Shown piece by piece: positions 4,572 to 26,997 of a stretch of 32,000 bases of DNA. This stretch comes from Geobacter metallireducens GS-15 (GTDB lineage Bacteria > Desulfobacterota > Desulfuromonadia > Geobacterales > Geobacteraceae): the NCBI RefSeq assembly GCF_000012925.1, contig NC_007517.1, forward strand, positions 2,220,001-2,252,000, given 5' to 3'. The notes under the pieces are model-generated. The model searched no databases and had not been told where the DNA came from. It was given only the letters and a program-made list of their open reading frames with translations. Every line of letters starts with the position of its first letter. Positions within the stretch are counted from its first letter, which is position 1. The translations under genes were made by a program, and so were the position numbers.

Positions 4572-4581
4572 CAATTGCACC

Positions 4582-6672
4582 TCAGATGAATTCCGGTTCG
4601 GTTATCCCGATCCGACCCTGATCACCGCAGTTAAACCATACGGTGAAAACCGTACCAACCCCAACGGTACTTGCCACGTCTATTCGTCCGCCGTGGGCCT
4701 CGACGATCTGCCGACATTGATAGAGGCCAATGCCGAGCCCTTTTTTCTTGGTGGTCTTGAACGGCGAGAAGAGTTGCGTCCGAAGGAACTCTTCCGGTAT
4801 CCCGCAGCCGGAATCACTGACCCGGATGAATGGGGCGCTTCCGGCGCCGACCTCGACCATCACGGGCCCCTTGCCGTCCGTTGCCTCAAGGGCGTTCACC
4901 AGAAGATTCATCACCACTTTCTGAATCTCCTCTCGATCCACCTCCGCGGAAGTATCGCTACCGGTGACTGAAATCCCCCCGTTTCCCGGCACCATGGCCG
5001 CAGTGTCGACGGCGAGACGGTGGAGGTCGACCAGCTCAAGCTCCAGCGACCGTTTCTCCGGCAGGTTTTTTAGGCGCGAGATCAGCACCTTCATGCGGTT
5101 GACCGTGTTCGAAAGGGTGTCAAGCAAGTCGTCCTGAAACTCAGGGTCGGCAATATGCTCCCGACCGTTGTCCACTGTCAGCGACAGCGTGTAGACCAAA
5201 TTCTTGAGGTCGTGGATAATGAAGGCCGAAACCCGGCCCATGACTTCCAGTTCCCTCGAACGGGCCAGTTGTTCGGAAAGACGGTAGTTCATAAGCGCCG
5301 ACGCCGCCTGACGGGCAAGGGTCTTCATCAGGTCGTAGTCCTCGTAAAGATACTGTTCATTCTTGTTGACGGGCCTGCCGAGGACCAGCACGGCCTCCAA
5401 CCTGTCGGGGCCGAAAAGCGGCACCAGGAACTGAATGCCATTGGCGGCGAAATAGGTTTCCTGCTCGGGAAGGCAAACGGGCGAGTCCTCCCGCAGATTG
5501 ATAACCCATGACCGTTCGATCATGGGAGTCAGGACCGGATCATCCGGTCTCAGGACGGCGCCAGTGCTCGGGAGTTCGTGGCCGGCTGCCCAGTTGAACT
5601 CGTTGCTATCGGCATTGCGAACAAACAGTCCACCGCACCCCATGGCGAATATCGCGCAGTAGCCAGAAAGAATGGCCGCCATCAGTTCCTCCCCCTGCCG
5701 TGCCGAAGCCAGGCGATCGGTGAACTGAAGCCACTGGGTACGATAGTCGTACTTGCTCTGGTAGAAATTCTTGTGGATAAAGACCTTGACCTTGCGCTTT
5801 GCGCTCTCTGAAAGGAGCACCACCAGGAGGCAGATGCCGACGATAAACGCCCCCCCAAGTGCAAGTGTCTTCTGGTGTCCTTCCCCAAAATACCGGAGTC
5901 CCTCCCCCATAATCCCCAGAGCAACCAGGTAGAGACCCACCGCAAAGAGGACCACTGACTTGTACGCCATGCTTCTGGAGACGGCGATCCTGACCCCGTT
6001 GCCGCGAACCAGCAGGGAATAGAGCATCATCCCCAAGGCAAGGATGAAGACCAGGGACCGTAGCGGCATCAGGTTCATGTTTATAGTCCGGTAGAGGAGC
6101 CCCTGGCTGTAATAAAATATGAGCACGGCCAGGAAACTTCCCGCACCGATGAAGTCGAACTTGATCTTCCACCGCGACGAAAGCGAAGCGTTGCTGAACG
6201 TGGCCTCCAGATTGATAAGCGAGATCACAACGTAGACCAGGAGCCCGCAGTAGAAGACATATCCGGCGTTTGAGAGGAAAAGTATCCGCTCGGAATCAAA
6301 GTCGGGCGAGTAGAAAAACATTGAGCGCGGGAGTGCGAGGACAGCGGCGGGAAATATCAGGCTTGCCGTCAGGAAAATCCTCTGGACGATCGTGACGAAC
6401 CGAACAGCCACGGTGCGGGCATGGGTGAGGCTGAAGGCGAGCCATGCCGCCGGCACAACCCCTTCGGCAATGAGGCTGTAACGCTTCCAATCGAGAGGAT
6501 CACCGAAGTACCCTGCCACTGCGGCCAAATCGCAGAATTCAACGGACGCCGAGACCGCAATGGCCACCACGGACAGATAAGCGGCGATGGTGCGCCCGCT
6601 CCGCCAGAGCGTACACGAAACGTAGACCGCAGCCAGGAGCAGAGCTATCGATGAAAGGACGATCTGAATCAT
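4582..6672 (-). CDS. prsK: PEP-CTERM system histidine kinase PrsK (polytopic membrane N-half, GAF-like, HisKA, HATPase)
   Basis: 696-aa ORF with about 8 or more hydrophobic helices in the first ~300 aa. H-box is FIIHDLKNLVYTL. N-box is NLLVNALEA, G1 is SDSGCGIP and G2 is GLGIGLYQCRQIVEAHGG. The stop at 4582-4584 abuts prsR. Length and architecture fit the PrsK family. Confidence 0.85.
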   Translation of the reverse strand: MIQIVLSSIALLLAAVYVSCTLWRSGRTIAAYLSVVAIAVSASVEFCDLAAVAGYFGDPLDWKRYSLIAEGVVPAAWLAFSLTHARTVAVRFVTIVQRIFLTASLIFPAAVLALPRSMFFYSPDFDSERILFLSNAGYVFYCGLLVYVVISLINLEATFSNASLSSRWKIKFDFIGAGSFLAVLIFYYSQGLLYRTINMNLMPLRSLVFILALGMMLYSLLVRGNGVRIAVSRSMAYKSVVLFAVGLYLVALGIMGEGLRYFGEGHQKTLALGGAFIVGICLLVVLLSESAKRKVKVFIHKNFYQSKYDYRTQWLQFTDRLASARQGEELMAAILSGYCAIFAMGCGGLFVRNADSNEFNWAAGHELPSTGAVLRPDDPVLTPMIERSWVINLREDSPVCLPEQETYFAANGIQFLVPLFGPDRLEAVLVLGRPVNKNEQYLYEDYDLMKTLARQAASALMNYRLSEQLARSRELEVMGRVSAFIIHDLKNLVYTLSLTVDNGREHIADPEFQDDLLDTLSNTVNRMKVLISRLKNLPEKRSLELELVDLHRLAVDTAAMVPGNGGISVTGSDTSAEVDREEIQKVVMNLLVNALEATDGKGPVMVEVGAGSAPFIRVSDSGCGIPEEFLRTQLFSPFKTTKKKGLGIGLYQCRQIVEAHGGRIDVASTVGVGTVFTVWFNCGDQGRIGITEPEFI

Positions 6673-6687
6673 TCGTTACCCGTAACG

Positions 6688-7977
<1,290 letters not shown>

Positions 7978-8164
7978 GAATGCTCCTTGTCAGTTATTGT
8001 CAGAGACAGCGTTGCCGGCTGTCACGCTACAATGAATATATTTTTACCAGACTGCACTATATCCGTAAAGAATTTCGACACAAAAAAGAAACTGCGTGAC
8101 AAATGTAAACTGTTCCGACAGACAGACTCTGGTATACTCTGGGTCGAACCCAAGGAGAGACTCC

Positions 8165-10315
8165 ATGCCCCTCAATAAATTCCTCATCGTTGCCGTTTTC
8201 GTTGCCATTACCGCTGCAAGCGCCCTAGCCGGCGACAAGCTGAAGCCCTATGCTGCAACTCCAGACCGGGTTCTCGTCATCTACAACGCCGACTGGAAAA
8301 ACCGGAGTGAAGGGAGCGCCGCTGAACAGGATTCGCGGGAAGTGGCCGAGTACTTCGCGGCCATGCACGCCGACCCGAAATCCGGGAAGAAACCCTATCT
8401 CCTCGGCCTGAGTTGCCGTCACCCGGGCAAGAAACATCTGAATGACTGGGCCATCCGGGAAGCGAGCACCGATAACCGCAACGGCATCGCGTTCAGAGGC
8501 AAGGGCCCGGCCCCGGGCCGTGGTGAACTGATCCGTGATTCACGCAAGGTGGAAGTCCACATTTCAGAGCCGGACGCCGACTGGGAGACCCTCCGCATTT
8601 CCTGCCGTTCCGAGGTGACCGGAGAGGAAAAAGTCGTCCCCCCAATCTCAACGGCTTTGCAAATCAGCGGCATTCCGGCCAAACCGGGTAACGATGCCGT
8701 CTATCCTCCCCCTGCGGACGGCAAGGGCAGAAGCATCCGGCTCGACGCCACCAGGTTCTTTGCCGGAACCGTCACCGTTTCTATCACTTTGAAGAACCAT
8801 GCCGGCACGGTGCTTCGAGACCTCAAGCTCCGCTACCATGACATCCGGAACTTCATTTTCTCCCCCACCGGTCCCGATAACATTCCCGACGACAAAATCC
8901 TTGAGGAAGATCTGCTGACACCAGTGAGAACGTTCCTCGAAGACCCACGAAATGCCCTTCCCGACGGCACACGCCTCAAGGATCACATTCTCTATATCGT
9001 CGTGGTGCATGGCGTCCCCTATGCGGGAAACGGCATCTTCGGCGTCGACCACGGCGTCACCTCAAGCTGGGGCGAACACGGATCCCTCACCTCTGTCGAG
9101 CAGCGGCTGCAGACCATCTACTACCCTTGGGCAACCCTGCGGCCCCCCGTAATCTCTCTCTACAATTCCCGGGGAAAAGACTCCGACAAGGGGGTAATCA
9201 ATCACCTGATAACGACAGCCATGCGGAATCCCCTCGGGGGAGCCCGCTGGAATCCCTACATGCACCCCGACACCTACTCCTACCTGCAGAAAGGAGCGCC
9301 TCCCCCCACCTTCATCAACCTCCCTCCCTTTGAGCGGGAGCGTCGGGAAAAGAAAGGAGCCTTCTTCGCCTACGCCGTCTCACGCATTGACGGTAACACC
9401 CCCGAAGAGGCCAAGCGGCTGATTGACTACGCCGTCTACGCCTCGAAGTACCTTCGCTCCGAAATGGATGCCGAAGAGCGGGTCGACACCCTGAAACGCT
9501 TCTTGACGCCGAAGCTTTCTTCGCTCCTCGAATCGGCGGTCGTGGAGAAATCATCGGGGGGGAAAGAACTCGCTGCCCTCGGTTTCCCGATCCGAGAATC
9601 GGAGGGTGGCCAAGGGGTTCCCTTCATGGTCCGTCCCGCAAGCGACACAGCAAGCCCCGACAAATCCGGTACGAGAGACTGGCGGCGATCCGGATTCTAC
9701 CCAGGTGGGATTGAACGCTTTGTGAAAAGCTCCAACGGCCTCAACAAAAAAGACGCCGGCATCTGGCAGCTCATATCTCAGGGAGTCACCGTTACTGCGG
9801 CAGGCTCGCCAGCCGGCAGCGGCGGTCCCCACATTACCAACACAACCTTCTGGGATAACCGGGTTCTGCTGAAATATCTCTTGCGCGGCAGAGACCTTGG
9901 GGAATGCTTTCTCCGTTCCACCTATCACGTGAACTGGTCCACGTCGCTGATCGGCGATCCCCTCTTCCACCCCGACCTGAACCATACCATCGTGGACGAG
10001 ACCCCGCCGCGGGCGTCCAAGGGACTCGCTATCCAGTGGGCAGTCAGAGACGGCAAAGCCACTGCCATGGTCGGCACTGAGCTGGACTTCGATCCGAGCG
10101 CACCGGAAGTAGCCCTCATGAATGTCACCGTCACGGCAGCCGATACTCAGCCTTCCACAACCCGAACGGCTCTTTATTCGCGGAGGCCAACTATTGCCGT
10201 CACCGGCTTGAAACCCGGCAGCTCCTATCACTTCACCGCAGAACTGACCGATCCTTACGGAAATCGGTCCGTCCTGCGCGAGGTCGTCAGCGCAGCTCCC
10301 GGATCAGGGCAATAA
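8165..10315 (+). CDS. secreted protein of unknown function (possibly TIGR03790-like) with a C-terminal FN3-like domain
   Basis: Start chosen at ATG 8165 because AAGGAGAG lies 5-12 nt upstream. Sec signal is MPLNKFLIVAVFVAITAASALA/GD. Motifs VLVIYNADW...SREVAEYFAAMH, HILYIVVVHGVPY and SLIGDPLFHP resemble what I recall of the uncharacterised TIGR03790 family. The tail TIAVTGLKPGSSYHFTAELTDPYGNRS is FN3-like. Confidence 0.7.
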   Translation: MPLNKFLIVAVFVAITAASALAGDKLKPYAATPDRVLVIYNADWKNRSEGSAAEQDSREVAEYFAAMHADPKSGKKPYLLGLSCRHPGKKHLNDWAIREASTDNRNGIAFRGKGPAPGRGELIRDSRKVEVHISEPDADWETLRISCRSEVTGEEKVVPPISTALQISGIPAKPGNDAVYPPPADGKGRSIRLDATRFFAGTVTVSITLKNHAGTVLRDLKLRYHDIRNFIFSPTGPDNIPDDKILEEDLLTPVRTFLEDPRNALPDGTRLKDHILYIVVVHGVPYAGNGIFGVDHGVTSSWGEHGSLTSVEQRLQTIYYPWATLRPPVISLYNSRGKDSDKGVINHLITTAMRNPLGGARWNPYMHPDTYSYLQKGAPPPTFINLPPFERERREKKGAFFAYAVSRIDGNTPEEAKRLIDYAVYASKYLRSEMDAEERVDTLKRFLTPKLSSLLESAVVEKSSGGKELAALGFPIRESEGGQGVPFMVRPASDTASPDKSGTRDWRRSGFYPGGIERFVKSSNGLNKKDAGIWQLISQGVTVTAAGSPAGSGGPHITNTTFWDNRVLLKYLLRGRDLGECFLRSTYHVNWSTSLIGDPLFHPDLNHTIVDETPPRASKGLAIQWAVRDGKATAMVGTELDFDPSAPEVALMNVTVTAADTQPSTTRTALYSRRPTIAVTGLKPGSSYHFTAELTDPYGNRSVLREVVSAAPGSGQ

Positions 10316-12401
10316 TCCTGCCGCGAACCTCATCAAAGCTTCCAGGCGGCCATGCGCCGTAACTCCCTTCCGCTGCAGAGGGTCCGGCGCCAAGGCTTGC
10401 CCTGATGCGCTCCAGTTCCCGCTCGACGTGGACACCCCGCCCGTCGCCCCGCGACTTAGCCCTGTTAATCAGTTCACGAAGTGCCAGGATATAACGGTAG
10501 TCGTTAATGCCGTCCCGGATCGTCTCCCAGACTGGTGTAGAGATCGGACCGGCAGCGCCCGGATAGGCCACCATGACCTCGGGACCGTCCAGCACGGTGA
10601 AGGGGTTGCCATTGCTCCCCTGGCTCATCTGGTAGGTCCAGGGAACAACGCCGTTTACCCCCCAGCGCCACGCGCCGAAGCCGAAAACATAACGGGTATA
10701 GCTCAGATTCTGCCCTGTCAGTGCCCCGTTAGGATAGATCCACCACTCATGCGCTGTTTTCCTGAGTCTGTCGGCCTCAGCATCGTCATCCGGGTCGCCG
10801 GTACAGATTACATCCACTTGCGGCCAAGGGCGGGTAATCAGGGTTCTGAAACCCATCTCGCGCACGATTCGATGGAGCGTTTCGCCGACGTTAGTGCGCA
10901 CCTGGTCCCGACGGTCCGGCTCATCCACCACCTGGATCAACACCCGTTCCTTCGCAATTCCCCTTTCGCGGCACAGCCGTTCCAACTCGGAGAGAAGAGC
11001 CCGTAGACGCCGGACGGCCACCTCTTCGTCATACAACAGAATGCTCCCGGGATGTTGCGGCTTGGCTGTATGGAGCAGATGCCCGAGATACCAGACAAAG
11101 GGACCGGAAAATCCCTGACTGCGATATGACCCAAGGGCCGCCTTCAGCCCTTCGAGCACGGGTTGCCCCTTGTCGTCAGTGCGATAGAAGAAGTGGGAAT
11201 GGGGATAGGCAACGTTCATGCCGTGGGCGCGGAAATCCCGATAGATCTCCTCTCCCCGCTTGACGAGGGTTCGCCTCTCCTCAGCGCTCCATCCGGGATT
11301 ATCCAACTCGTAGAAGGCGTAATCCATCATCATGCCATAGCGGATGTCCGGATCCGGCAGCGTCAACGGCAGGACTTCAACCGTCAGTGGCAGTTCGGCA
11401 ACCGTCCCTGCATGGTTGCGAACCATCAAGGCCCCACGGTAAATGCCGGAAACCGCACCTACAGGAATGGCAACAGTGATCCAGAAACTCCGCGTCTCAT
11501 CATGACCGACCGTCACCGCGCCCTGTTCGATCAGCCGTGGTGCCCGACGCACCTGGAGCGCAGTCTGCTCCGCGTCCTCCCGAACCACTTCGTTCAAGTC
11601 TTTGACCACGCCACAGAGAACCGCCCCAGACAGTATCGAGCCACTGACGCTTCGCAGGGGCGTCACTTCAAGAGACACGACACCGAGATCCCGTTTCCCC
11701 CGCAGAGAAACCGCAACAGCCTGGGTCTCACCCCGTGCCAAGCAGATGCTCACCCCATTATCCACCGAACCCTTGCCAGGCACACTGTCACTGAAGACCC
11801 GCTCCTGGGGGCTATGGGCAAAGAGAATCCCGTCGTCGGTATCGACCCGAGCCGAGACCGAACGGATCGAATGGCTACCAGCCAGTGGTTGATCCGCAAC
11901 ACATCGGAACGGTTTGTACTCATACCCCTTTGCCACAAACCTCCGTCCAAGCTGGTTGCGTCGGAACTCGTGGAGGAGGTCGGCCACGACATGGCCGCCA
12001 GGGTCCATCACGCGTATCTGAACTGAATAAATGCCATCTGGAATGGAATAGGGACGTTCAGGATCAAGGAGGTCTGCCTGGTGGGGGATGTCGAAGCCGA
12101 AACTTCCCGTGGGGCCATCAAGCCGGCAGATAGTGTCCCGTCCGAGTGGCACCCCGTCACGGCGCAATTCCCCCTGCACTGTCAGCCGGTCATAGAGAAT
12201 GCCTCCCGCATCGACCTTGAATCCGACAATCAGGGACGAGCGCATCTGTGGCTGCCGGAGGGTAATTACACGGTCACGGAGCTGGTAGGAGACAATATGC
12301 ACTCCCGTTCGGGAACAACCCGAGACACCGGAAAAGAGGAGCACCAGAATCGCGCAGAGTGTACCGACTGCACAGAAACCAGTGCCCACATTTCTCTTCA
12401 C
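10287..12401 (-). CDS. exported lipoprotein, GH123/DUF4091-like putative glycoside hydrolase
   Basis: 704-aa ORF with a GTG start that overlaps the upstream stop (GTGA). Lipobox is LLFSGVSGC. Pattern ARGETQAVAVSL...ETRSFWITVAIPVGAVSGIYRGALMV...LPLTVEVLPLTLPDP is followed by WWIYPNG...YTRYVFGFGAWRWGVNGVVPWTYQ. This pattern is typical of GH123-N/DUF4091 proteins, by recollection only. Confidence 0.65.
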   Translation of the reverse strand: MKRNVGTGFCAVGTLCAILVLLFSGVSGCSRTGVHIVSYQLRDRVITLRQPQMRSSLIVGFKVDAGGILYDRLTVQGELRRDGVPLGRDTICRLDGPTGSFGFDIPHQADLLDPERPYSIPDGIYSVQIRVMDPGGHVVADLLHEFRRNQLGRRFVAKGYEYKPFRCVADQPLAGSHSIRSVSARVDTDDGILFAHSPQERVFSDSVPGKGSVDNGVSICLARGETQAVAVSLRGKRDLGVVSLEVTPLRSVSGSILSGAVLCGVVKDLNEVVREDAEQTALQVRRAPRLIEQGAVTVGHDETRSFWITVAIPVGAVSGIYRGALMVRNHAGTVAELPLTVEVLPLTLPDPDIRYGMMMDYAFYELDNPGWSAEERRTLVKRGEEIYRDFRAHGMNVAYPHSHFFYRTDDKGQPVLEGLKAALGSYRSQGFSGPFVWYLGHLLHTAKPQHPGSILLYDEEVAVRRLRALLSELERLCRERGIAKERVLIQVVDEPDRRDQVRTNVGETLHRIVREMGFRTLITRPWPQVDVICTGDPDDDAEADRLRKTAHEWWIYPNGALTGQNLSYTRYVFGFGAWRWGVNGVVPWTYQMSQGSNGNPFTVLDGPEVMVAYPGAAGPISTPVWETIRDGINDYRYILALRELINRAKSRGDGRGVHVERELERIRASLGAGPSAAEGSYGAWPPGSFDEVRGRIIALIRELR

Positions 12402-13102
12402 TTGGTCCCCCGCAACAGCCCCGTTCCGGCCTTGCGGTTTATCAACACACTGTCAGAGCCGGTCAAACCTTCACCATTTTCGGCAACGACACGTATTAAG
12501 TGGAGCCCTGGGGCCATCAAGCAGGTATCCACACTCGTCTCGAAGGGGGGCTTCGTCATCTTCTGCACCAAGGTTCCGTCCACCAAAACTGAAACCGCCA
12601 CTACGCCACCCGGGTTCCCTTTCCCCTTCGAGGCGATGAGTTCCACCTTGACCGGAAATGCCCCATCAACGGATGAACGGTCGGTTGGAGAGACGATACG
12701 AACGACTGGCTTGCTGTTGTCGATGGTGAAGTGCACCCGCTTCTCTGAAGCAGGCTTCGCCCCCCCCGTATAGCAATACAGAACTACCGAGGCGGGGCCG
12801 TCGGCAAAGAGCCGCGTATCGAGCTTGTACCCCTTGCCTCCCCACACGTAGGGCGGAAGTCCATACTCCCTCCAGGCGTAACGATCCTTCGCACCAGGCT
12901 CCTGGAGGTAAAACTCAACGAAATCCACAACGGAAGGGTTACTGACCCGCGCTTCGATGGAGATTTCCCCGTGAACTGTCGTCCCCTCCCTGGGCGAGAG
13001 GAATTCGATGGCAGGCGGAATGTCGGCGCCCCATGACACATCGGCCAAGGCAAGGCCTGCCAGAAGCATCCTCATTGTTAACTTCGCGGCCAACTTCGCC
13101 AT
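12398..13102 (-). CDS. secreted protein with two Ig-like (bacterial Ig fold) domains
   Basis: Signal peptide is MAKLAAKLTMRMLLAGLALADVSWG/AD. Two beta-rich repeats are present (EGTTVHGEISIEARVSNPSVVDFVEFYL and DRSSVDGAFPVKVELIA...VSVLVDGTLVQKMTKPPFETSVD). ATG 13102 is preferred; the ORF track starts at 13120, which would overlap the upstream gene. Confidence 0.6.
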   Translation of the reverse strand: MAKLAAKLTMRMLLAGLALADVSWGADIPPAIEFLSPREGTTVHGEISIEARVSNPSVVDFVEFYLQEPGAKDRYAWREYGLPPYVWGGKGYKLDTRLFADGPASVVLYCYTGGAKPASEKRVHFTIDNSKPVVRIVSPTDRSSVDGAFPVKVELIASKGKGNPGGVVAVSVLVDGTLVQKMTKPPFETSVDTCLMAPGLHLIRVVAENGEGLTGSDSVLINRKAGTGLLRGTK

Positions 13103-13104
13103 AA

Positions 13105-15276
13105 TTATATCCCCTTGCAACTGCGATACGCGTCAAGGTCAACCGGCACGGCCATGGCCGCCGGTGCCCGTTTTCCGGGTGCCCGAGTCAGATTGGCGGG
13201 AGGATGAACCTGCACGTACACCGTGTGAACACCCTTGAGCTGCGCAATGTCCCACTTCACCGAAACATTCCGGTGCTCCAGGGGAAGAAGCCGCGATATC
13301 GTCTCACGGCCGATTACTTTGCCACCTTTGGCAGGGTTGCCGTCATACACCGTCACCTCGACAGCTTCTCCTGTCCCGTGATCGTCCAGGAAAAGGCCAT
13401 AATCTGCTGAGTTGCTGAAATTGCGAACCGAAGCAACAACGGCAAGTGACTGTGAATGGTCCTTGGCCCTTTCAAAACGGATAAAGGATTCCGAGGGAAT
13501 CCGCACGTCCGGGGGATTCAACACCTTGACAATCCGCGAGAACACATTGTTGGCCTTGTCCGATTCAGCCACTCGGTTATCCGGATCCACAACGGCGTAC
13601 ACCGGCACGCCAGGATTAGCGGCCCTGCCCGCGAGCTTCCGTGTAGCCTTCCATTGCACACGGGCCAAACCGGTTCCCCCCACAGGTATACGCGATATCG
13701 TGTCTCTGCCGATTTCAACCCCGCCCTGTGCAGGATTGCCGAGATAGACAGCAACCGGCACGTTATGTGCCTCTGCTGCCCCCCGATTGGTCACCCGTGC
13801 GCTCACCGTAATCTCTTCACCCTCAAAAGGTGTTTCCTTGGAAAGCGTGATCGGCAGATCGTCGTGCCAGTTGTACGTTACCCTTACCGTTCGCCGGGCC
13901 TGAGACCCATCGGAGAAGGTTATACGGTTATCGCCCGGCCGCAGCGCCGGTAAACACCGAGGGTTATAGGCCAGCACCGATGCACTATCCAGGTGATAGG
14001 CGCCCACATCGCGGGGGGATTTCCCAGCGCGCATCCTCAGTCGCATCAGGTAAGAATATTTCCAGGGAACGTCCGTGGTCACCTGCTGGGTCTGGGCGGT
14101 TACTACCGAAGCCTTGACGGTCCCTGTCGCGTCGGCGCGCCAGAGGGAAACCCACCGCTTACCGTTGTCCGTTGAGATATCTATTGCCGCCGAATCTCCG
14201 GTCCCTTTGCGAAAAAACGACCCGGACAGTGTCGTCTCCGGTATGAAATAGGGGGTTTTGACCCGGTACACCAGCGAGGCTTCCTGCTTTGCATGTTGGG
14301 GGTGAAGGTAACCGGCTGCCGCATCCTGCCAGTCGATATTGGTAGAACTGACGAGCCCGCTCCGGCTTTGGGAGCGATCCTTGAAATCGCGGTGAAACGT
14401 GAACAGGCCGTTCCCGTAGAAAGGCGGCTCCCCAGCGGGTTCTTTTCCCCCCTCCTGGCCTCGATTGAGGCACCATTTCCCCCGGCTTTGCCAGTCAAGG
14501 GTCAGAACATCCCCCTTTGCCATGGTGAAGTCGTTCGTATAAACCGGCGAGCGGCCGTGCCCGTTCGGATGCATGGTCATGTAATAGTATTTCTTGCCGG
14601 CCTTGCGCGACGAACCGCGCCGCAGCATTGTCCAGAGCTCCACATTGTCGTTAAGCTCATCGAGGCTCGCAATGGTCCGGTTGTCCTTCAGGAGAAAATA
14701 GGTTCGCGTATCGGCGTCAATGTAGTGCCAGTCATTGTTGTAGTAGACTTCGGTCGCGGCATGGTTGCCGATATTGACGTGACGTGCTGTAAGCCCGGCG
14801 GTCCACCAGAGGGATTCCAGCACCGCCGCATAGGTTCCGCAGTAGCCGTAGCCGTACACATTCAGGTGTTCCAGCCCATCCAGGCTCGTCCCCCATCTGC
14901 CGTGGTAGCAGGAGTCCATGACAAACCTCCAGAGGGCCAGGGCCTTTTCCTCGGCAGTCATGCCGGGTGCCACCACGCCGGCAACGACTGACGCAAGACT
15001 TGAACAGTCAACCGAGCCACTGGAGCGGAGGCGGGGGGTGAGTGATTCACCTTCGTTCACTTCGATACGGATCGATGAGTTTTCAAGGGGAGCGTCGGAA
15101 GGCGTATGAATGGAGAAAGAATGCTGCTGCGCGGTGATAAGTTCTGAGTAGCTCCGATCACCACCTTCAAGGGTCAGGTCGGGCAGGACCGGCTTGCCTG
15201 AACAAGCCGCGCCCCCCATGATTACCAGGAACGCCGCCATGGCTGTCAACCGTATGCTCCGACACATAATTTTCAT
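13105..15276 (-). CDS. exported lipoprotein with a transglutaminase-like cysteine-protease core plus two CARDB domains
   Basis: Lipobox is IMGGAAC. The TGase-like core YGYGYCGTYAAVLESLWWTAGLTARHVNIGNHAATEVYYNNDWHYIDAD carries Cys146 (14839-14841), His172 (14761-14763) and Asp187 (14716-14718). The first CARDB-like repeat is EITVSARVTNRGAAEAHNVPVAVYLGNP...AVVDPDNRVAESDKANN and the second is ASVRNFSNS...VTVYDGNPAKGGKVIGRETI. Confidence 0.8.
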   Translation of the reverse strand: MKIMCRSIRLTAMAAFLVIMGGAACSGKPVLPDLTLEGGDRSYSELITAQQHSFSIHTPSDAPLENSSIRIEVNEGESLTPRLRSSGSVDCSSLASVVAGVVAPGMTAEEKALALWRFVMDSCYHGRWGTSLDGLEHLNVYGYGYCGTYAAVLESLWWTAGLTARHVNIGNHAATEVYYNNDWHYIDADTRTYFLLKDNRTIASLDELNDNVELWTMLRRGSSRKAGKKYYYMTMHPNGHGRSPVYTNDFTMAKGDVLTLDWQSRGKWCLNRGQEGGKEPAGEPPFYGNGLFTFHRDFKDRSQSRSGLVSSTNIDWQDAAAGYLHPQHAKQEASLVYRVKTPYFIPETTLSGSFFRKGTGDSAAIDISTDNGKRWVSLWRADATGTVKASVVTAQTQQVTTDVPWKYSYLMRLRMRAGKSPRDVGAYHLDSASVLAYNPRCLPALRPGDNRITFSDGSQARRTVRVTYNWHDDLPITLSKETPFEGEEITVSARVTNRGAAEAHNVPVAVYLGNPAQGGVEIGRDTISRIPVGGTGLARVQWKATRKLAGRAANPGVPVYAVVDPDNRVAESDKANNVFSRIVKVLNPPDVRIPSESFIRFERAKDHSQSLAVVASVRNFSNSADYGLFLDDHGTGEAVEVTVYDGNPAKGGKVIGRETISRLLPLEHRNVSVKWDIAQLKGVHTVYVQVHPPANLTRAPGKRAPAAMAVPVDLDAYRSCKGI

Positions 15277-18122
15277 CTCCCCTTGCCCGTCACGACACTG
15301 AACTCAAACTGAGACTGTCGCCCTGCCAGCAGTGACTCAAACGTGAGGGTTCCCTGGGCACTCGCCGTGACCGTGGCAACCACCTTGCCGTCCTGCCGCA
15401 CCTGATAGTCACGGCCAGGCTTCAGGTCGCACAGAAGCTGCCAAACCTTGCCGTTTCCGGAAAGCGGGTAACTCCCCTTGGTCAGGAAATCGGCTCCCTT
15501 GGCAAAAAGAACAGCCCGGTTACCGATGAGCGCCCCATAAAGCGAATCGTCTCGAGACTCGATCAGTACGGCGTCACTCCCCCCACTCCCCTTAAGGGAT
15601 GGGTGAAGGACATGGAGGAAATTATCCAATTTGGCGTGCTTTTTCGGGCTCACCTCCACTCGCCAGAGGCCATACTGGTTGCCATCGCCATAGCTGTAGC
15701 CAAAGCCATAGCCCCATGGATAGTCGATGCGCCCGGCATCGTTATCCCGGTCAACGCCTTCAACTCCCATATGCCTGAACTCCTGGATAACCCGCGCACC
15801 GGCGGGAATATCAGCACCGGGGGACGACTTGATCGCCCTGACGCAATCCAGGAGCTTTGCCGGACTCTGTCCCAGTCTGGTCCTGCCGTCACAGAAGTAT
15901 GCGACCCGGTCACTGAACGACTTGCCCGAGGCGTGGGCCGCCTGGGGCCAGACCGAGTAGCGGTCGAACACCTCACGGTTCGGGTCAGGCGGTTGATTGG
16001 TAATGATAACCGTCGGATGTTCCGGTAAGCCCGCTGTCGAAGCAACCTCGATGTCAATGGGGCCGTTATCCGTTGATCTGAGCGGCTTTCTGAGGGTCGT
16101 GGCCATGGAACCTCCCAATCGCCTAACCACTCGGTTATCTTTTTTCGGCAGCAGTGTCGTGCTCCGCAACTGCGAGCGCTCCTGCCGGACCGTTATCCGG
16201 CTTGTGTTCTCCGACCGGTGTATACCGCCAGACTCGTTGCCCACGGTCACCTTGGCACTTCCGTCAAACTCGGGGCGCGCCCTGAGCTGCAACAGCCACA
16301 GCTTCTTGAAATCAGGCTTTACCGCATCGACCCGGTCGAACACTACGAAATAATCGTCATCCCCTCCCGGTGAACGGAGATAGACGAATTCGCGCTGCAC
16401 CAGGGAAACCTTCGCCTTGCTCTTTCCCGTGGTCACCGCAGTGGAGTTGTAGGCACGAGTGGCATCGGCGGCCGTGTAGACATAGCGGTCACTCCGCTCG
16501 AACCGGACCAGCCCCCCGATATCGCGGTAATTGCCGTTGGCAGTCCCGTTGTAGGTCCTCCCCCACTTGTCATCCCAATAGGTGGTAATGCGCTGGCCGC
16601 CGTCGTTGGCCCAGCCGCCGAAATCCTCATTCGGATCGTAGATCAGAAGGTTGTTGGTCGAAATGGTACGGGTGAAAAAATTGGCCGCCTGAGGCCACCC
16701 CGGATTTTTGTCCCGCAGGGGTCCCCCCTCGTACCAGCACATGTAATTTCCCGACCGTGCCAACGCCAGTTCCTCTCCCTTGGCGATCATGAACGCCAGG
16801 CTATCGTGGTGCATGTGTCCATGGTAGTAGAAAGGCTCTGCCTTGAAGAGGGCATACGTGGCATCGGGGTCATTCCAGGCACTCCGCATGGCCACCCACC
16901 CGATGCCGGCTTTCTTACCGAAACGATCCCGATCGATTTCTCCTGCACGTTCATCCCACCCCAGAGCTTCTGCCAGGGGCAACCCGACTTCCTTGGGACC
17001 AAGCGGGGGAATCGTTTCATCGAGGAGCACAAACGAGACGGGGTTTTCTGCTTGATAGGGTATTCCTCCAAAGGCCTCCTTAACCAGCCACATATAGAGG
17101 CTTGCCGTCTTTTCATCACCCTTGCGGCGGTATTCCGCAGCGGTGATTGCCATATTTGTCGCCATTCCTTTCCCAACAGAACCATAGTCTGTGGTGGTGG
17201 CAGTCCAGTTATCATGGAAGGTGGCAAAGTAACGGAAGGCCTTGCCGGTCTTGGCCCGCTCTATGGGAAAAGGGAGCAAGGCCTGGATAAGATGGTTGGG
17301 AAGCCGTGCAAAGACTTCCTGATCTAAAAAAAATGACGACCTTGTTGCCGTCGACAAGGCGAGGAACGGATTGAATGTCCCTCCCAACTGGAAAATATAA
17401 TAGGTCCCGTCGGCAAAGCCGCCATCCTTGCCGGCAACTTGCTCCATGGCCAAGTTGTCCCGTAATGTCTCTCGAATGGCCGTTACGAGGAGTTTTTCCG
17501 CGTAGGCGTCATCAATCCCGTCACCATAGAACGCCAAGGCAGCCACGATCCCCTCGGGTCGCGGAGAAGCCCGATAACCATAAGTTTTTTCATTGTGAAT
17601 TCTGATTTCCTTTCCGATCCTCTTTTTGCAGAAATCCACGAACGCCCGCTTTTCCTGCTGTGTAAGCGCCCCATGGGCCCAGTCGTACAGAACCGCAAGA
17701 TCATCGGGCGCTGCCTTGCTTCCCCCGCTTATGGCGTCCGTCAGAGCCTTGGCGGCCATTCGGCCATAATCGTTACGGGACATCTTCGCCCCGTGCTCGG
17801 GCCCGATCCCCATGGCGTAGAAGAGCGCCGCCTGCTTACCTCCCATTCTTTGGTGCATCAGGCTCCACTGCTTCGCCTTTGTCGTTAGCGCCTCTGTCTT
17901 CAGGGCGGGGATCCGCTCCGGCGTCAGATAGATCCGCGGATGCCCCTTGCGGATGGTGGCAACGACCTTTTTCGCCTCACTCTCAGCCCAGGAGCGGGTT
18001 GATCCTTCCGACTCCGAGGAGGCAGTTTCACGGCATGCAAACAGAAGCACGGTGAGAGACACCGTCAACAGTAGAGTGAGAAACCATCTCGCGGCAATGG
18101 ACTTAGGCGCCATTTTCATCAT
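15273..18122 (-). CDS. exported lipoprotein, heparinase II/III-like polysaccharide lyase family
   Basis: Start chosen at ATG 18122 because GGAGG lies 4 nt upstream and it makes an ATGA overlap with the upstream stop. Lipobox is LTVLLFAC. The N-terminal motif HPRIYLTPERIPALK is typical of alginate-lyase/heparinase N-domains. The core FYYHGHMHHDSLAFMIAKGEELALARSGNY...TNNLLIYD resembles the Hepar_II_III signature (H-x-H-x-D...HNT). Confidence 0.75.
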   Translation of the reverse strand: MMKMAPKSIAARWFLTLLLTVSLTVLLFACRETASSESEGSTRSWAESEAKKVVATIRKGHPRIYLTPERIPALKTEALTTKAKQWSLMHQRMGGKQAALFYAMGIGPEHGAKMSRNDYGRMAAKALTDAISGGSKAAPDDLAVLYDWAHGALTQQEKRAFVDFCKKRIGKEIRIHNEKTYGYRASPRPEGIVAALAFYGDGIDDAYAEKLLVTAIRETLRDNLAMEQVAGKDGGFADGTYYIFQLGGTFNPFLALSTATRSSFFLDQEVFARLPNHLIQALLPFPIERAKTGKAFRYFATFHDNWTATTTDYGSVGKGMATNMAITAAEYRRKGDEKTASLYMWLVKEAFGGIPYQAENPVSFVLLDETIPPLGPKEVGLPLAEALGWDERAGEIDRDRFGKKAGIGWVAMRSAWNDPDATYALFKAEPFYYHGHMHHDSLAFMIAKGEELALARSGNYMCWYEGGPLRDKNPGWPQAANFFTRTISTNNLLIYDPNEDFGGWANDGGQRITTYWDDKWGRTYNGTANGNYRDIGGLVRFERSDRYVYTAADATRAYNSTAVTTGKSKAKVSLVQREFVYLRSPGGDDDYFVVFDRVDAVKPDFKKLWLLQLRARPEFDGSAKVTVGNESGGIHRSENTSRITVRQERSQLRSTTLLPKKDNRVVRRLGGSMATTLRKPLRSTDNGPIDIEVASTAGLPEHPTVIITNQPPDPNREVFDRYSVWPQAAHASGKSFSDRVAYFCDGRTRLGQSPAKLLDCVRAIKSSPGADIPAGARVIQEFRHMGVEGVDRDNDAGRIDYPWGYGFGYSYGDGNQYGLWRVEVSPKKHAKLDNFLHVLHPSLKGSGGSDAVLIESRDDSLYGALIGNRAVLFAKGADFLTKGSYPLSGNGKVWQLLCDLKPGRDYQVRQDGKVVATVTASAQGTLTFESLLAGRQSQFEFSVVTGKGR

Positions 18123-19330
18123 GTACCTCCTGCGGCGGCCTGGTAGGTCCGCTCCTGCTCCTCGCACAGCCTGCCCCAATCGTAGGTAAGGGCGCATTCC
18201 CGCGCATTCCGCTCAAGTGCTTCACGCAAATCCCTGTTCGCAAGGACGGACATGACCTCATCTGCAAACGCTTCGGGGGTGTCGGCAACAAGTATATTCC
18301 TGCCATGCTCCACCGCAAGCCCCTCGCATCCCACCGAGGTTGAAACAATAGCCTTTCCCATCCCCATGGCATCAAGGATCTTGAGCCGCGTACCGCTGCC
18401 GATCCGGATCGGCACCACCACCACCCGTGCCTCGTCCACATAGGTGCGGATATCATCCACGAAGCCGGTCACCCTTACCCGCGGGTCGCTGGCTGCGGCC
18501 TCGGCAATCTCCCGGGGCGGTGCGGTTCCCACAAAGATCATGGTGGCGTCGGGCTGCCGCTGCCGGATCAGCGGACAAATCTCGCGCCAGAAATAGAGGA
18601 CTGCATCGCGATTGGTGTGGACATCCATGTGCCCTAGCCAGAGCACGGAATTTTCCACAGGTGGCCGTCCAATGGGCTTGAAGAACTCGGTATTCGTCCC
18701 GTTGGGCACCACGGAGATCGGAATGGTTATCCCCATGCCTACGAGAACATCACGGTCCAGCTCAGAAACGGCGATGCACCGGTCAAAACGGTTCACCATC
18801 TCCTTTTCAAACCGGCAGAGCCTCTGCCACTGGAGTTTCAAGAAAGCCCGCTTCAGCGTACTCGGGTCCGATTCCGCCCAGCGCTGCAGTCTGATCGATT
18901 CCACATTGTGATTGACCAGGATTTTGGGGAGATGGAAGAACTCACTCAGGTAAACCGACAGGGGGAGCAAGTCCACATGGACAAGGTCAATCTTGTTGTT
19001 CGCAATGATCTCCCTGATCTTGGCCCGCATCGCCGGGGAGTCGTATTTGGACGCCACAAAAGGGAGGTCGGAAAACAGGTTGCAGCCGAGCGAAAAGGCC
19101 AGTTTGGCGCGGGACTGATCGACCGGAATCGGGAACGTGTGCACTTCCTTGCAGAAACTCTTGAGGTGCTCGATGTGCTCAGGCTTCAGCTCGTGTTCCG
19201 GCTGCTGGATAAAGGTCACCAAGGTCACGTCATGGCGTCGCGCTGCATCCCGCAGCGTGTGATAGGTGCGCAGACTGTGGCCGTTGATGAGGGGATAGGG
19301 GCTCTTGGTGGAGAGGAACAAAACGTTCAT
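18119..19330 (-). CDS. GT4-family glycosyltransferase (possibly the PEP-CTERM/EpsH1-associated sugar transferase type)
   Basis: 403-aa ORF. The N-terminus is MNVLFLSTKSPYPLINGHSLRTYHTL. The C-half is a GT-B fold with the E-x7-E region VVVPIRIGSGTRLKILDAMGMGKAIVST. There are ATGA overlaps at both ends. Confidence 0.85.
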   Translation of the reverse strand: MNVLFLSTKSPYPLINGHSLRTYHTLRDAARRHDVTLVTFIQQPEHELKPEHIEHLKSFCKEVHTFPIPVDQSRAKLAFSLGCNLFSDLPFVASKYDSPAMRAKIREIIANNKIDLVHVDLLPLSVYLSEFFHLPKILVNHNVESIRLQRWAESDPSTLKRAFLKLQWQRLCRFEKEMVNRFDRCIAVSELDRDVLVGMGITIPISVVPNGTNTEFFKPIGRPPVENSVLWLGHMDVHTNRDAVLYFWREICPLIRQRQPDATMIFVGTAPPREIAEAAASDPRVRVTGFVDDIRTYVDEARVVVVPIRIGSGTRLKILDAMGMGKAIVSTSVGCEGLAVEHGRNILVADTPEAFADEVMSVLANRDLREALERNARECALTYDWGRLCEEQERTYQAAAGGT

Positions 19331-20463
19331 CCGATCGCTCCTCCTGCTCCGATCATACCCCGGTAGATTTCGATATAGCGCTGCGCCATGGTATCGGCAG
19401 AGTAATGCACTTTCACGCGTTCGTATCCTTTCAGGGCCATGCAGCGGGCCTTGTCCGCCTCGTCGTGGCTGCGGATTATGGCTTCGGCAAGGGCCGGGAC
19501 ATCACCCGGGGAGACAACAACACCGGTGACACCATTATTAATTACTGTGGCAATCGCCCCCACATTGGTGGCTATGGCTGGAACCTTTGCCGCCTGAGCC
19601 TCCAGAAGGGCCATGGGAAGACCTTCACTGAGGGACGGAAGAACAAAGAGATCGAAGCGGGGCAAAATGGACGGAACGTCATCCCGCTTCCCCGTAAAAA
19701 TAGCAGTTTGTTCAATCCCCTCTTCCCGAGCCAACTGCTCAAGGCGCCGCCTCTCAGGACCATCCCCCACCACAACACAGACGACATTCGGGATCGATTT
19801 GCGGACGCTCTTGACAGCCTGCAGCAAATGACGGTGCCCCTTTTCCTCCGTGAGCGCCCCCACTGTACCGATCACATAGGAACTACCGGCTACCCCCAGC
19901 ACATTTCCTGCATCTGCCTTGGTCGGCAGGCTTTCGAAACGGCTGAAATCGACCCCGTTGTCAATGACCGACAGCCCATCCCTACCGATTCCCAATACCG
20001 CAAGCCGATCGGCAATTTTCGGAGATACGGCAACCACTCGATCAGCCTTCCTCACCAGCATGGCATCGAGAAGAGCATAGAGAAACAGTTTAAAACCGGC
20101 CCTCCGCCCATGATTGGTGACGATCCAGCGGGCGCCTGACAGCTCCGCGGCCTGCCGAGCGTAGTAATTGCTCTTGTAATTGTGGGAATGGATGATCTGC
20201 GTCCCGCTCTTCCGGATCTCCTCCGTCAGGATGCCGACGACTCCTGCGTCGAAACGCCCTCCGCACGGGACAACCAAGGTTGGCAGCCCCGCCCCGCGGG
20301 CAGCCTCTGCCAATTCCGTATTCGGATTTCGGCTGTTCTTCAAAGCCGCCACGGTCACATGCATGCCGAGGGAACGGGATTGTGACGCCAGTTCGAGCAG
20401 CACCCTCTCGGCGCCGAAAAGGCCGGAGGTACTTATGAGGTGTAGTATATGGAGAGGCTCCAC
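19327..20463 (-). CDS. GT4-family glycosyltransferase
   Basis: Motifs are HILHLISTSGLFGAERVLLEL at the N-terminus and LFVLPSLSEGLPMALLEAQAAKVPAIATNVG. The ORF-track start (ATG 20637) would overlap epsI by about 150 nt. GTG 20463 or TTG 20469, just downstream of the epsI stop, is more plausible. The start is uncertain. Confidence 0.8.
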   Translation of the reverse strand: MEPLHILHLISTSGLFGAERVLLELASQSRSLGMHVTVAALKNSRNPNTELAEAARGAGLPTLVVPCGGRFDAGVVGILTEEIRKSGTQIIHSHNYKSNYYARQAAELSGARWIVTNHGRRAGFKLFLYALLDAMLVRKADRVVAVSPKIADRLAVLGIGRDGLSVIDNGVDFSRFESLPTKADAGNVLGVAGSSYVIGTVGALTEEKGHRHLLQAVKSVRKSIPNVVCVVVGDGPERRRLEQLAREEGIEQTAIFTGKRDDVPSILPRFDLFVLPSLSEGLPMALLEAQAAKVPAIATNVGAIATVINNGVTGVVVSPGDVPALAEAIIRSHDEADKARCMALKGYERVKVHYSADTMAQRYIEIYRGMIGAGGAIG

Positions 20464-20483
20464 TGTCAACAGCTCGGGCCGGT

Positions 20484-21107
20484 TCAGAAAAAAGAGGTGA
20501 GAGCCGGAGCCAGGGAATTCATGTAGCGCGTCGCCACATCCCGCGTTGCATCCACACTCCCCCGCACCGGAACATGCAGTTGTACCTGGGCGCCGCTCGG
20601 ACGCTTGAACTGCATCTGCTGTTGAAGCATCTCCCATCTGAAAGTCGAATACTTACCGGTCATCCGGTCGCCGGAGAGATAGAAATAGTAGATAACCCGT
20701 ACCGGCTCGGCATAGCCCAGCACCAGCCTGTTGAGGTCGATCTGCTCTTGCTTGCCACCCGCGAGCGTCACCGTAATCGGGACAATGCGCTCATCGAGCA
20801 CCTTCATGCCGACGCCGGTATTGCACGACTCGGGGTTGTGGAACCCGATCTTGTTGTCGGGATAGTACACGAGAGAGAGATACACATGCTCACCCTGGGG
20901 GCTCGAATAATCACGACTCAGGATGTACTCGGTCTCCAGGATGTCCTTCACCCGGTCCTCAACGGTGTAGGGGGTTCCCCGCCACTCCCCCACGGTGAAG
21001 GGGAAATCTTCGAGCTTGACCGTAACCGGCTTGTTGGCCAGGTGGTTGTCGAGGAAAACAAATCCCGACGTGGCCAGGAGCAGTAACAATAGTGTGATAG
21101 CTCTCAT
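20484..21107 (-). CDS. epsI: EpsI-family exosortase-associated protein
   Basis: 207-aa ORF with one N-terminal TM/signal anchor. LEDFPFTVGEWRGTPYTVED...ILSRDY...VYLSLVYYPDNKIGFHNPESCNTGVGM matches the EpsI pattern (fP..ig.W.g...Y......l.i.yY......HsPe.C). The start overlaps the exosortase stop (ATGA at 21104-21107). Confidence 0.85.
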   Translation of the reverse strand: MRAITLLLLLLATSGFVFLDNHLANKPVTVKLEDFPFTVGEWRGTPYTVEDRVKDILETEYILSRDYSSPQGEHVYLSLVYYPDNKIGFHNPESCNTGVGMKVLDERIVPITVTLAGGKQEQIDLNRLVLGYAEPVRVIYYFYLSGDRMTGKYSTFRWEMLQQQMQFKRPSGAQVQLHVPVRGSVDATRDVATRYMNSLAPALTSFF

Positions 21108-21961: not shown

Positions 21962-21985
21962 TGAATTACCTCTCATACCCAATAG

Positions 21986-22100
21986 CTTTCACCACGAAAA
22001 CACGAAATTGGGAAAGCACGAAAGAAAACCCCTTAAATCTTCAAACTTCATTTGTTTTTAGACCTTTTTTCGTGCTTTCAACCTTTCGTGCTTTCGTGAG
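21986..22100 (-). repeat. intercistronic inverted-repeat element, copy A (long imperfect hairpin built from 8-nt xxxGAAAG units)
   Basis: The left arm CACGAAAACACGAAATTGGGAAAGCACGAAA pairs with the right arm TTTCGTGCTTTCAACCTTTCGTGCTTTCGTG. It lies between the GT4 stop (22114) and the xrtA start. It shares its arms with the copies at 24162-24274 and 26998-27096. Confidence 0.85.
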
Positions 22101-22113
22101 AAGGTTGTTTGGT

Positions 22114-23301: not shown

Positions 23302-23311
23302 GGGGATTCTG

Positions 23312-24154: not shown

Positions 24155-24161
24155 TCAAATT

Positions 24162-24274
24162 CTTTCACCACGAAAACACGAAATTGAGAAAACACGAAAA
24201 TAAACCCCAAGACCTTTAGCCTCTTTGTGTTTTATGCCTCTTTTCGTACTTTCAACCTTTCGTGCTTTCGTGAG
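24162..24274 (-). repeat. intercistronic inverted-repeat element, copy B
   Basis: It has the same arms as copy A (CACGAAAACACGAAATTGAGAAAACACGAAAA ... TTTTCGTACTTTCAACCTTTCGTGCTTTCGTG) but a different central loop. It ends 7 nt from the deacetylase ATG at 24154. Confidence 0.85.
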
Positions 24275-24289
24275 ATGTTTGTTCTTGAT

Positions 24290-25477: not shown

Positions 25478-25504
25478 CGAAAAATCTCCTTCACTACTTC
25501 AGCA

Positions 25505-26968: not shown

Positions 26969-26997
26969 GGCTCTACTCCTTTTCTACTTCATAAAGG

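Follow-up and report, generated by a model that had tools for sequence, protein, structure and literature searches.

AlgL, PslG, PelA and BcsZ process the polymer of their own exopolysaccharide (EPS) operons. Exosortase/PEP-CTERM systems are common among bacteria of sediments and biofilms, and the extracellular fate of their polymer and sorted proteins is little understood. For Geobacter metallireducens, Haft 2006 (PMC1569441) listed Gmet_2003 as EpsH, Gmet_2002 as EpsI, Gmet_1993 as PrsK and Gmet_1992 as PrsR, as well as a second exosortase, Gmet_1503, elsewhere in the genome. Here, we analyzed a 32,000-nt stretch of G. metallireducens GS-15 (NC_007517.1, positions 2,220,001 to 2,252,000; the window) and focused on four genes behind the exosortase gene, Gmet_1999, Gmet_1998, Gmet_1997 and Gmet_1996, which we refer to as LYASE, TGASE, BIG7 and GH123L, respectively. 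Their numbers were given by position, from the neighbours Gmet_2003, Gmet_2002, Gmet_1993 and Gmet_1992 listed by Haft. A full-text search for Gmet_199x and Gmet_200x names returned only Haft 2006, which names exosortase and regulator genes nearby but none of the four genes studied here, and a literature search found no paper joining exosortase to heparinase or exosortase to transglutaminase.

The explanation that we favor, at slightly better than even chances for the whole of it, is that the last eight genes of the operon form a translationally coupled unit inside a PrsK/PrsR-linked EPS locus, and that the four distal ones are a conserved, horizontally shared and so far undescribed accessory module, working outside the cytoplasm on the matrix built by its own locus. 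A sequence-only reading of the same DNA had proposed an exosortase-coupled matrix-remodelling module.

The gene unit and its exported proteins

Gmet_1999 to Gmet_1996 are the distal half of an eight-gene, gap-free minus-strand unit in the order exosortase, EpsI, two family 4 glycosyltransferases (GT4), LYASE, TGASE, BIG7 and GH123L. LYASE (15273-18122) encodes a heparinase II (PL21)-like lipoprotein of 949 aa, for which GenBank uses the next ATG (948 aa); TGASE (13105-15276) encodes a predicted transglutaminase-fold Cys-His-Asp enzyme of 723 aa, annotated with a later start at 720 aa; BIG7 (12398-13102) encodes a secreted protein of 234 aa with two Big_7 Ig-like domains; and GH123L (10287-12401) encodes a lipoprotein of 704 aa from the GH123/DUF4091 superfamily with a DE motif. 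TGASE and LYASE are identical (100% each) to ABB32227 and ABB32228. That the four genes are chained behind exosortase, EpsI and two glycosyltransferases, as the sequence-only reading held, was borne out by the open reading frames (ORFs) and by the junctions, which we read directly. The TGA of the preceding GT4 gene (18121-18119) overlaps the LYASE ATG at 18122 in an ATGA, the LYASE stop (15275-15273) overlaps the TGASE ATG at 15276 in the same way, the TGASE TAA (13107-13105) lies 2 nt from the BIG7 ATG at 13102, and the BIG7 stop (12400-12398) overlaps the GH123L GTG at 12401 in a GTGA. The BIG7 start had been left uncertain between 13102 and 13120; a Shine-Dalgarno sequence, AAGGGGA, ahead of the ATG at 13102 makes it preferable to the TTG at 13120. 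Across 9500-24500, sigma-54 sites (TGGCAC-N5-TTGC), sigma-70 sites and intrinsic terminators showed no excess over shuffled sequences, leaving internal promoters or terminators without support; a loose GG-N10-GC scan was uninformative.

All four proteins are predicted to be exported, as had been noted from their signal peptides or lipoboxes. Each has a hydrophobic h-region at the N-terminus, and a rule-based test (PROSITE PS51257-type), the sole basis of the lipoprotein calls, places a lipobox cysteine at Cys30 of LYASE, Cys25 of TGASE and Cys29 of GH123L, while BIG7 carries a plain signal peptide. The lipobox recurs in most LYASE homologues and in several GH123L homologues; it is not conserved in the TGASE homologues.

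LYASE was assigned by sequence and by structure. A single-sequence search of the PDB with LYASE returned only heparinase II (HepII; E 2e-26), and a 14-sequence LYASE profile matched HepII at E 1.6e-57 with the N-terminal, central and C-terminal regions all aligned. The AlphaFold model of LYASE (pLDDT 74.9, pTM 0.79) retrieved HepII (3e7j/2fuq) first in Foldseek (E 4e-29, TM 0.63-0.66), with PL15 and PL17 alginate lyases, exoHep and further lyases of the toroid-plus-sandwich type ranking next. Model, Foldseek and profile all support a three-domain fold of alpha/alpha toroid, beta-sandwich and C-terminal beta domain, and the earlier call of a heparinase II/III-like lyase stands (profile E 1.6e-57, Foldseek TM 0.66). 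The NCBIfam model NF045571 (HepB) gave 136.3 bits (E 9e-40) against an equivalog cut-off of 600, a score that makes LYASE a HepB homologue but not an equivalog. Its 'HGHMHHD' pairs with 'NHQHQD' of HepII, so that H436 corresponds to H406 and H438 to H408. D147 and Y242 are among the toroid residues that do not vary in an 18-sequence superfamily alignment reaching down to 22% identity; Y242, in the motif DGGF..G..Y, is a candidate catalytic tyrosine, called from its invariance and its expected distance from the YDW motif. An exhaustive search gave 698 superfamily representatives at E<=1e-30 (50% clustering), and because only about 9 of them are full-length with an insert of about 170 aa found in LYASE, the family is a divergent clade with few members within a large lyase superfamily. 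Residues 40-400 and 630-815, scanned alone, matched no Pfam family.

The same fold could serve tailoring rather than degradation. LYASE might be a polymer-level uronate C5-epimerase that abstracts the same proton without elimination, and the polymer would then be finished by epimerisation, side-residue trimming and amide chemistry, not by cutting. Foldseek also retrieved human dermatan sulfate epimerase 1 (6hzn; TMt 0.45, E 1e-10), which shares its His/Tyr/His set with heparinase II; moreover, the zinc site of HepII is gone from LYASE, and the gene lies in a biosynthetic operon directly after glycosyltransferase genes. We nevertheless regard an epimerase as unlikely, given that true lyases are the best matches by a wide margin (HepII at E 4e-29, then PL15 and PL17), that homology at the sequence level reaches HepII only, and that lyases such as AlgL are well precedented inside EPS operons.

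GH123L fell below the Pfam gathering thresholds (GH123_N_2 23.9 versus 27, GH123_N 15 versus 22), but the GH123L family profile (A3) matched the solved beta-N-acetylgalactosaminidases 8k2j (4.9e-19), 8k2f (7.5e-14), 8k2l (1e-11) and 5l7v (1e-7). Among 14 family members at E<=0.01, GH123_N_2 was matched by 10, GH123_N by 8 and GH123_cat by 1. D493-E494 is invariant in the 14 sequences, its 'VVDEPD' aligning with 'ADEPV' of 8k2j, and G584 and W588 are invariant as well. In DUF4091 proteins such a DE pair, 94% conserved, stabilises the 2-acetamido group and serves as acid/base in substrate-assisted catalysis (Sumida et al. 2024, PMC11087588). Residues 30-200 and 540-704 of GH123L, scanned alone, matched no Pfam family. 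The proposed GH123/DUF4091 assignment is thus upheld by the profile and the DE motif, but not by the protein's own Pfam scores, and a GH123_cat match or DUF4091 annotation was found only in its homologues.

For TGASE, Transglut_core (PF01841) reached 20.3 bits (E 7e-4), short of its cut-off of 23, and the same domain was matched by 10 of 13 family members at E<=0.01 (best 1.9e-5). C146, H172 and D187 are invariant in the 13 sequences (alignment A1) down to 34% identity, and their motifs, YGYCG, GNHAATEVY and WHYIDA, stand in canonical order. The transglutaminase-core call of the sequence-only reading therefore keeps its triad and its relatives' matches, though its own score is below the cut-off. 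Of the two CARDB domains also proposed, one was detected: CARDB (PF07705) covers residues 473-580 with 56.5 bits, it is matched by 13 of 13 family members, and residues 471-588 match PDB 2KUT with 99% identity over the Foldseek-aligned columns, the C-terminal residues of the entry differing. 2KUT is a structural-genomics nuclear magnetic resonance structure (NESG target GmR58A) deposited as 'uncharacterized protein'. The second proposed copy, at 585-723, gave no Pfam match, and the model shows a beta-sandwich there; residues 245-470, scanned alone, gave none either. In the TGASE model (pLDDT 76), a beta-sandwich at the N-terminus is followed by the core, a central beta domain, CARDB and a last beta-sandwich, and a profile search against the PDB returned CARDB structures only. 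BIG7 was matched by Big_7 (PF17957) in two stretches with 58.7 bits against a cut-off of 24.1, which together with the plain signal peptide agrees with its description as an Ig-like secreted protein; its motifs are strongly conserved (A4) but without a catalytic signature.

Recurrence of the module in exopolysaccharide loci

The four families are small: 5.8 billion proteins yielded only about 50 clusters (90% identity) for each. Contigs of 18 lengths are common to the TGASE and LYASE match lists. We surveyed 16 loci scored with tblastn, a sample and not a census. The full set of four families is present in the window, L001, L015 and L016, and three of the four in L002, L003, L006 and L008. In Ca. 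Sulfobium mesophilum (Nitrospirota; L001/L009), the order is LYASE, TGASE, BIG7, then after further genes exosortase, EpsI, GH123L, PrsK and, farther on, PrsR; small ORFs between BIG7 and the exosortase were considered as PEP-CTERM proteins and are not. Logan assembly SRR29054603 (L015) has LYASE, TGASE, BIG7, a small ORF, GH123L, exosortase, EpsI and PrsK, with a dehydrogenase and PrsR farther along, and a Geobacter relative (L016) keeps the window order with a FemAB-like gene, two GNATs and a deacetylase between the GT4s and LYASE. LYASE, TGASE and BIG7 precede a contig end in a Moduliflexota sequence (L002), and TGASE, BIG7 and GH123L adjoin in the ENA metagenome assembly ERZ778604 (L003). 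Three Thermodesulfobacteriota loci (L006/L007/L008) read CapK-like, SufS-like, GH123L, TGASE, BIG7, PrsK and PrsR, with LYASE farther along the contig, and in L014 exosortase and EpsI are followed, after other genes, by a LYASE upstream of the same radical SAM and phosphodiesterase genes as in these three.

BIG7 is directly downstream of TGASE in all eight loci examined for this, PrsK is within 10 kb in six and an exosortase in four. Metagenome-assembled genomes of Nitrospirota, Thermodesulfobacteriota and Moduliflexota carry the set as well, always in EPS loci, and the linkage is far beyond chance. The findings that the sequence-only reading had named as counting against it included a lack of conserved linkage in related genomes and a failure of the domain calls under profile search; the linkage was found in distant genomes, and the calls hold by profile, structure and motif. 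Across phyla, the module proteins are 43-68% identical and the adjacent exosortases 29-33%, and the exosortases beside the module in other phyla score best on the XrtW model. Some loci have PrsK/PrsR within 10 kb and no exosortase. Because the exosortases diverge in this way and are missing from some loci, the linkage appears to depend less on the exosortase, or on its type, than on the EPS locus and its chemistry.

Another Geobacter relative (L013), whose exosortase and PrsR are 60% and 66% identical to those of the window, reads exosortase, EpsI, two glycosyltransferases, ATP-grasp, a different heparinase-like gene (26% identical), a rhodanese-like ORF, GH123L, PrsK and PrsR. TGASE and BIG7 are absent from this locus, which has an exosortase and a PEP-CTERM gene; a 145-aa ORF in their place was considered as BIG7 and is unrelated to it. 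Since L013 keeps a heparinase-like gene and GH123L without TGASE and BIG7, the four genes are not one indivisible unit, and on these gene orders TGASE and BIG7 are an obligate pair that is separable from the rest of the module. The module interpretation of the sequence-only reading is accordingly retained in its domains and its linkage but needs amending: the exosortase is not XrtA by the curated cut-off, the coupling tracks the EPS locus more than the exosortase, and the set can be divided. None of the four proteins matches a curated exosortase-associated NCBIfam model, in agreement with the view that the set lies outside the canonical neighbourhood.

The small exported rhodanese-like ORF is an observation in its own right. 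It follows the module at 13100-13564 in L001, at 12838-13302 in L014 and at 9551-9988 in L013, and is absent from the G. metallireducens window. In L001 and L014 an in-frame TGA stands right after 'AFYC[M/A]' and homology continues past it; the L013 ORF is Ser-rich there and has no stop. The TGA could encode selenocysteine (a C-x-U motif) or mark a split gene.

These loci also bear on whether TGASE and BIG7 act as an extracellular transglutaminase that joins PEP-CTERM proteins to each other or to the amines of deacetylated polysaccharide. The Cys-His-Asp triad is intact, factor XIII and TG2 are among the Foldseek matches after 2KUT, a deacetylase able to make amine acceptors is always in the locus, and PEP-CTERM genes are found near the module in L006 and L013. 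However, L013 has an exosortase and a PEP-CTERM gene and lacks TGASE, the factor XIII and TG2 matches superpose poorly despite E values reaching 1e-8 (TM 0.13-0.17, root-mean-square deviation >10 A), and most bacterial Transglut_core proteins are reportedly predicted to be hydrolases. Moreover, TGASE homologues of about 33% identity from an archaeon, Acidobacteriota and Glassbacteria have GH42, GH36, BNR, HEAT, permease and racemase genes as neighbours, a catabolic and not an EPS context. A cross-linker, in essence what the sequence-only reading had suggested, is therefore, in our judgment, quite unlikely.

The same distant TGASE homologues in catabolic clusters, and the classically catabolic nature of heparinase II and GH123 enzymes, would fit a role in nutrient scavenging, in which the enzymes digest foreign glycosaminoglycan-like or glycoprotein material and their EPS neighbours are an accident of insertion. 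We consider this highly improbable: the genes share stop/start overlaps with glycosyltransferase genes, no transporter, sugar kinase or uronate catabolism gene was found in the window, and the same set occurs in EPS loci of at least four lineages whose surrounding genes differ.

Proposed function and the surrounding locus

Taken together, the gene content suggests that trimming or remodelling of the cell's own EPS matrix is the most likely role of the module. The polymer would contain N-acetylhexosamine and N-acetylhexosaminuronic acid, because the locus holds a TviB-like dehydrogenase, a deacetylase and a set of GT4 and GT2 glycosyltransferases. LYASE would cleave its HexN(Ac)-(1,4)-uronate bonds by beta-elimination through Tyr242 and His436, and GH123L may hydrolyse beta-N-acetylhexosaminide linkages by substrate-assisted catalysis through Asp493 and Glu494, so that the two could together trim, release or clear the polymer. 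The two chemistries need a uronate at +1 and a 2-acetamido sugar at -1, and both enzymes are lipoproteins at the end of a glycosyltransferase operon. The other heparinase-like gene in the same slot of L013 fits enzymes that track polymer structure. TGASE, with BIG7, would use the predicted Cys146-His172-Asp187 triad to act on a matrix component that is protein or amide-linked, and PEP-CTERM proteins or peptide and amino-acid decorations are candidate targets. A protein or an amide is a more likely target than a glycan, and hydrolysis is somewhat more likely than cross-linking, since the distant homologues sit in catabolic contexts.

Several points weigh against this explanation. Of the HepII zinc ligands, D425 and H451 are replaced in LYASE by Ala and Thr and only H438 (H408) is kept; LYASE carries the extra, family-specific insert of about 170 aa; and dermatan-sulfate epimerase (6hzn) uses the same fold and residues. 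The transglutaminase core of the TGASE model has a pLDDT of 51-77, its poor superposition on factor XIII and TG2 was given above, and several Pfam matches in the module are under their gathering cut-offs. Named Geobacter matches are limited to G. metallireducens, G. grbiciae and a truncated copy in G. hydrogenophilus; because the families are small and such matches few, the module is dispensable for exosortase systems in general.

A broader proposal is that TGASE, positioned by its Ig-like partner BIG7, covalently joins exosortase-cleaved PEP-CTERM proteins to polysaccharide amines made by the deacetylase, or frees them, while LYASE and GH123L size the glycan scaffold. We hold this to be improbable; if true, TGASE and BIG7 would supply a step that is missing downstream in the exosortase pathway, and the four genes would define a machine that conjugates protein to polysaccharide and remodels the product. 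If only trimming of the cell's own matrix applies, this is one more EPS operon with its own depolymerases. In either case, the module offers four conserved, exported candidates in a genetically tractable Geobacter, with predicted catalytic residues that can be mutated (Y242/H436, C146, D493/E494), a partly solved TGASE structure (2KUT) and four protein families not yet covered by curated exosortase-associated model sets. It also hints at the chemistry of the polymer, N-acetylhexosamine plus N-acetylhexosaminuronate, and the role of TGASE and BIG7 could bear on events after exosortase cleavage.

The module closes one long minus-strand EPS locus (about 31960-10287), which opens with a flippase fragment and continues with a methyltransferase, a GT2, an O-antigen-ligase-like protein, a second GT2, a CapK/PaaK-like ligase, a SufS-like protein, a TIGR03006 deacetylase, a GT4, exosortase, EpsI, two GT4s and the four module genes. 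The exosortase gene (Gmet_2003, 21104-21982, minus strand), the first of the eight-gene unit, matched Pfam Exosortase_EpsH with 225.8 bits, yet it passes only the generic model TIGR02602: its XrtA score (TIGR03109) is 179.8 bits against a cut-off of 208, and its XrtW score, 185.4 bits, is slightly higher. By the curated cut-off, the earlier label 'xrtA' does not apply to this gene. Three XrtA-system markers in its neighbourhood do pass their cut-offs, namely the deacetylase (23312-24154, minus strand; TIGR03006 411 bits versus 276), PrsK (Gmet_1993, 4582-6672, minus strand; TIGR02916 667 bits) and PrsR (Gmet_1992, 3204-4580, minus strand; TIGR02915 714 bits), the last two being the PEP-CTERM two-component regulators. 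The deacetylase is 70% identical to its orthologue in L015, and deacetylase genes are present in L001 and L016 as well.

Downstream of the exosortase, the EpsI gene (Gmet_2002, 20484-21107, minus strand; DUF3485 146 bits; TIGR02914 153 bits, passing) overlaps the exosortase stop by 4 nt. The stp2-like GT4 (19327-20637, minus strand) scored 135 bits on Glycos_transf_1 and 168 bits, under the cut-off, on TIGR03088; its true start is probably near 20485, as judged from the L016 orthologue of 385 aa, which begins at the EpsI stop. The stp1-like GT4 (18119-19330, minus strand; TIGR03087 236 bits versus 316) overlaps the gene before it by 4 nt. At the other end of the unit, a convergent plus-strand gene (Gmet_1995, 8096-10315) encodes an exported protein of about 715-739 aa and shares 29 nt with the 3' end of GH123L. 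Its sole match was TIGR03790, with 40 bits where 67 are required; the gene has a counterpart of 73% identity at the same place in L016 and is absent from the more distant loci. Beyond Gmet_1995 come the gene for a TviB-like UDP-N-acetylhexosamine 6-dehydrogenase (Gmet_1994, 6688-7977, minus strand; NF011729 534.6 bits versus 592, TIGR03026 passing), the probable source of N-acetylhexosaminuronate, and then PrsK and PrsR; a nucleotide-sugar dehydrogenase is also found in L001, L015 and L016. A PEP-CTERM motif scan of all ORFs in the window found none, and one was found in L006/L007.

A repeated element marks the 5' boundary of the unit. It is an imperfect palindrome of about 130 nt at 21975-22120 (minus strand), directly 5' of the exosortase gene, where it fills a 132-nt gap that is the only intergenic space near the unit. 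Two other copies, at 24150-24295 and 26965-27135 (minus strand), occupy the gaps upstream of the deacetylase and of the CapK-like gene, so that three intergenic gaps of the EPS operon are filled by copies built of CACGAAAG/CTTTCGTG units with 70% mean identity on alignment. GCACGAAA occurs 8 times against 1.1 expected, and the predicted hairpin has -48 kcal/mol (z -5.1). No Rfam family matched the element or anything else in the window, and none of the 16 related loci has the hairpin. Possible roles are those of a REP-like (repetitive extragenic palindromic) element, an mRNA-processing site or a regulator-binding site.

Three further features of the window were recorded. A SufS-family cysteine desulfurase (478.7 bits, just over the cut-off) and a CapK/PaaK-like adenylate-forming enzyme are encoded at 24290-26968 (minus strand), and this pair adjoins GH123L, TGASE and BIG7 in the Thermodesulfobacteriota loci L006 and L008 (64% and 51% identity); one would not expect a sulfur-mobilising enzyme in a polysaccharide locus. 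A perfect sigma-54 -24/-12 match, TGGCACTCTTGTTGC, at 807-821 (plus strand) lies 75 nt 5' of a gene at 896-3163 of the GAF-HisKA-GAF-HD-GYP type, next to PrsR; homologues flank PrsR in L013 and L016, and the gene may be a PrsR target. Finally, G+C drops from about 0.57 to 0.40-0.45 over 28000-32000, which holds the O-antigen-ligase-like, GT2, methyltransferase and flippase genes, a fall that points to separate acquisition of this end of the locus.

Comparison with known systems

The locus as a whole resembles the XrtA/PEP-CTERM EPS loci (Haft 2006, PMC1569441) in its exosortase and EpsI, stp-like GT4s, TIGR03006 deacetylase, PrsK/PrsR, O-antigen-ligase-like protein and flippase. It differs from them in an exosortase below the XrtA cut-off and in module genes that match no curated exosortase-associated family, and none of the chain-length determinant, tyrosine kinase, FemAB and amidotransferase genes is in the window.

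Each enzyme can likewise be set beside its closest described relatives. LYASE shares with heparinase II of Pedobacter heparinus the three-domain fold, the equivalents of H406 and H408, the NDGGQR region and the C-terminal domain, whereas it is only about 19% identical, has lost D425 and H451, carries the insert of about 170 aa and is a lipoprotein encoded in a biosynthetic operon. GH123L has the N-terminal beta-sandwich, the DE-bearing barrel and the G...W pair of the GH123/DUF4091 enzymes NgaP, BvGH123 and NgaDssm (PMC11087588). Unlike these, it has an extra N-terminal stretch of about 190 aa, and its context is EPS synthesis rather than glycoconjugate catabolism. TGASE follows the transglutaminase-like protease/amidase superfamily (PF01841), which includes PNGase and bacterial transglutaminase-like proteases, in its Cys-His-Asp order, with spacings of 26 and 15 residues. 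The triad of yeast PNGase, C191/H218/D235, has spacings close to these. TGASE departs from that superfamily in its unique architecture (beta-sandwich, core, beta domain, CARDB, beta-sandwich) and in its obligate Big_7 partner gene.

With the self-polymer glycanases AlgL, PslG, PelA, BcsZ and PgaB, the module has in common exported lyases or hydrolases that are encoded in a glycosyltransferase operon and presumed to act on its product, and, as in the alginate operon, a lyase is paired with a uronate-forming dehydrogenase. The families differ, being PL21-like and GH123-like here as against PL5, GH39-like, GH166 and GH8, and the activities here are predicted ones. The module also adds a Cys-His-Asp enzyme with an Ig-like partner, and it sits in an exosortase/PrsK-PrsR locus. 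An EPS operon with its own remodelling enzymes is thus a known theme, and the less ordinary part of this one is the predicted transglutaminase-fold/Ig pair.

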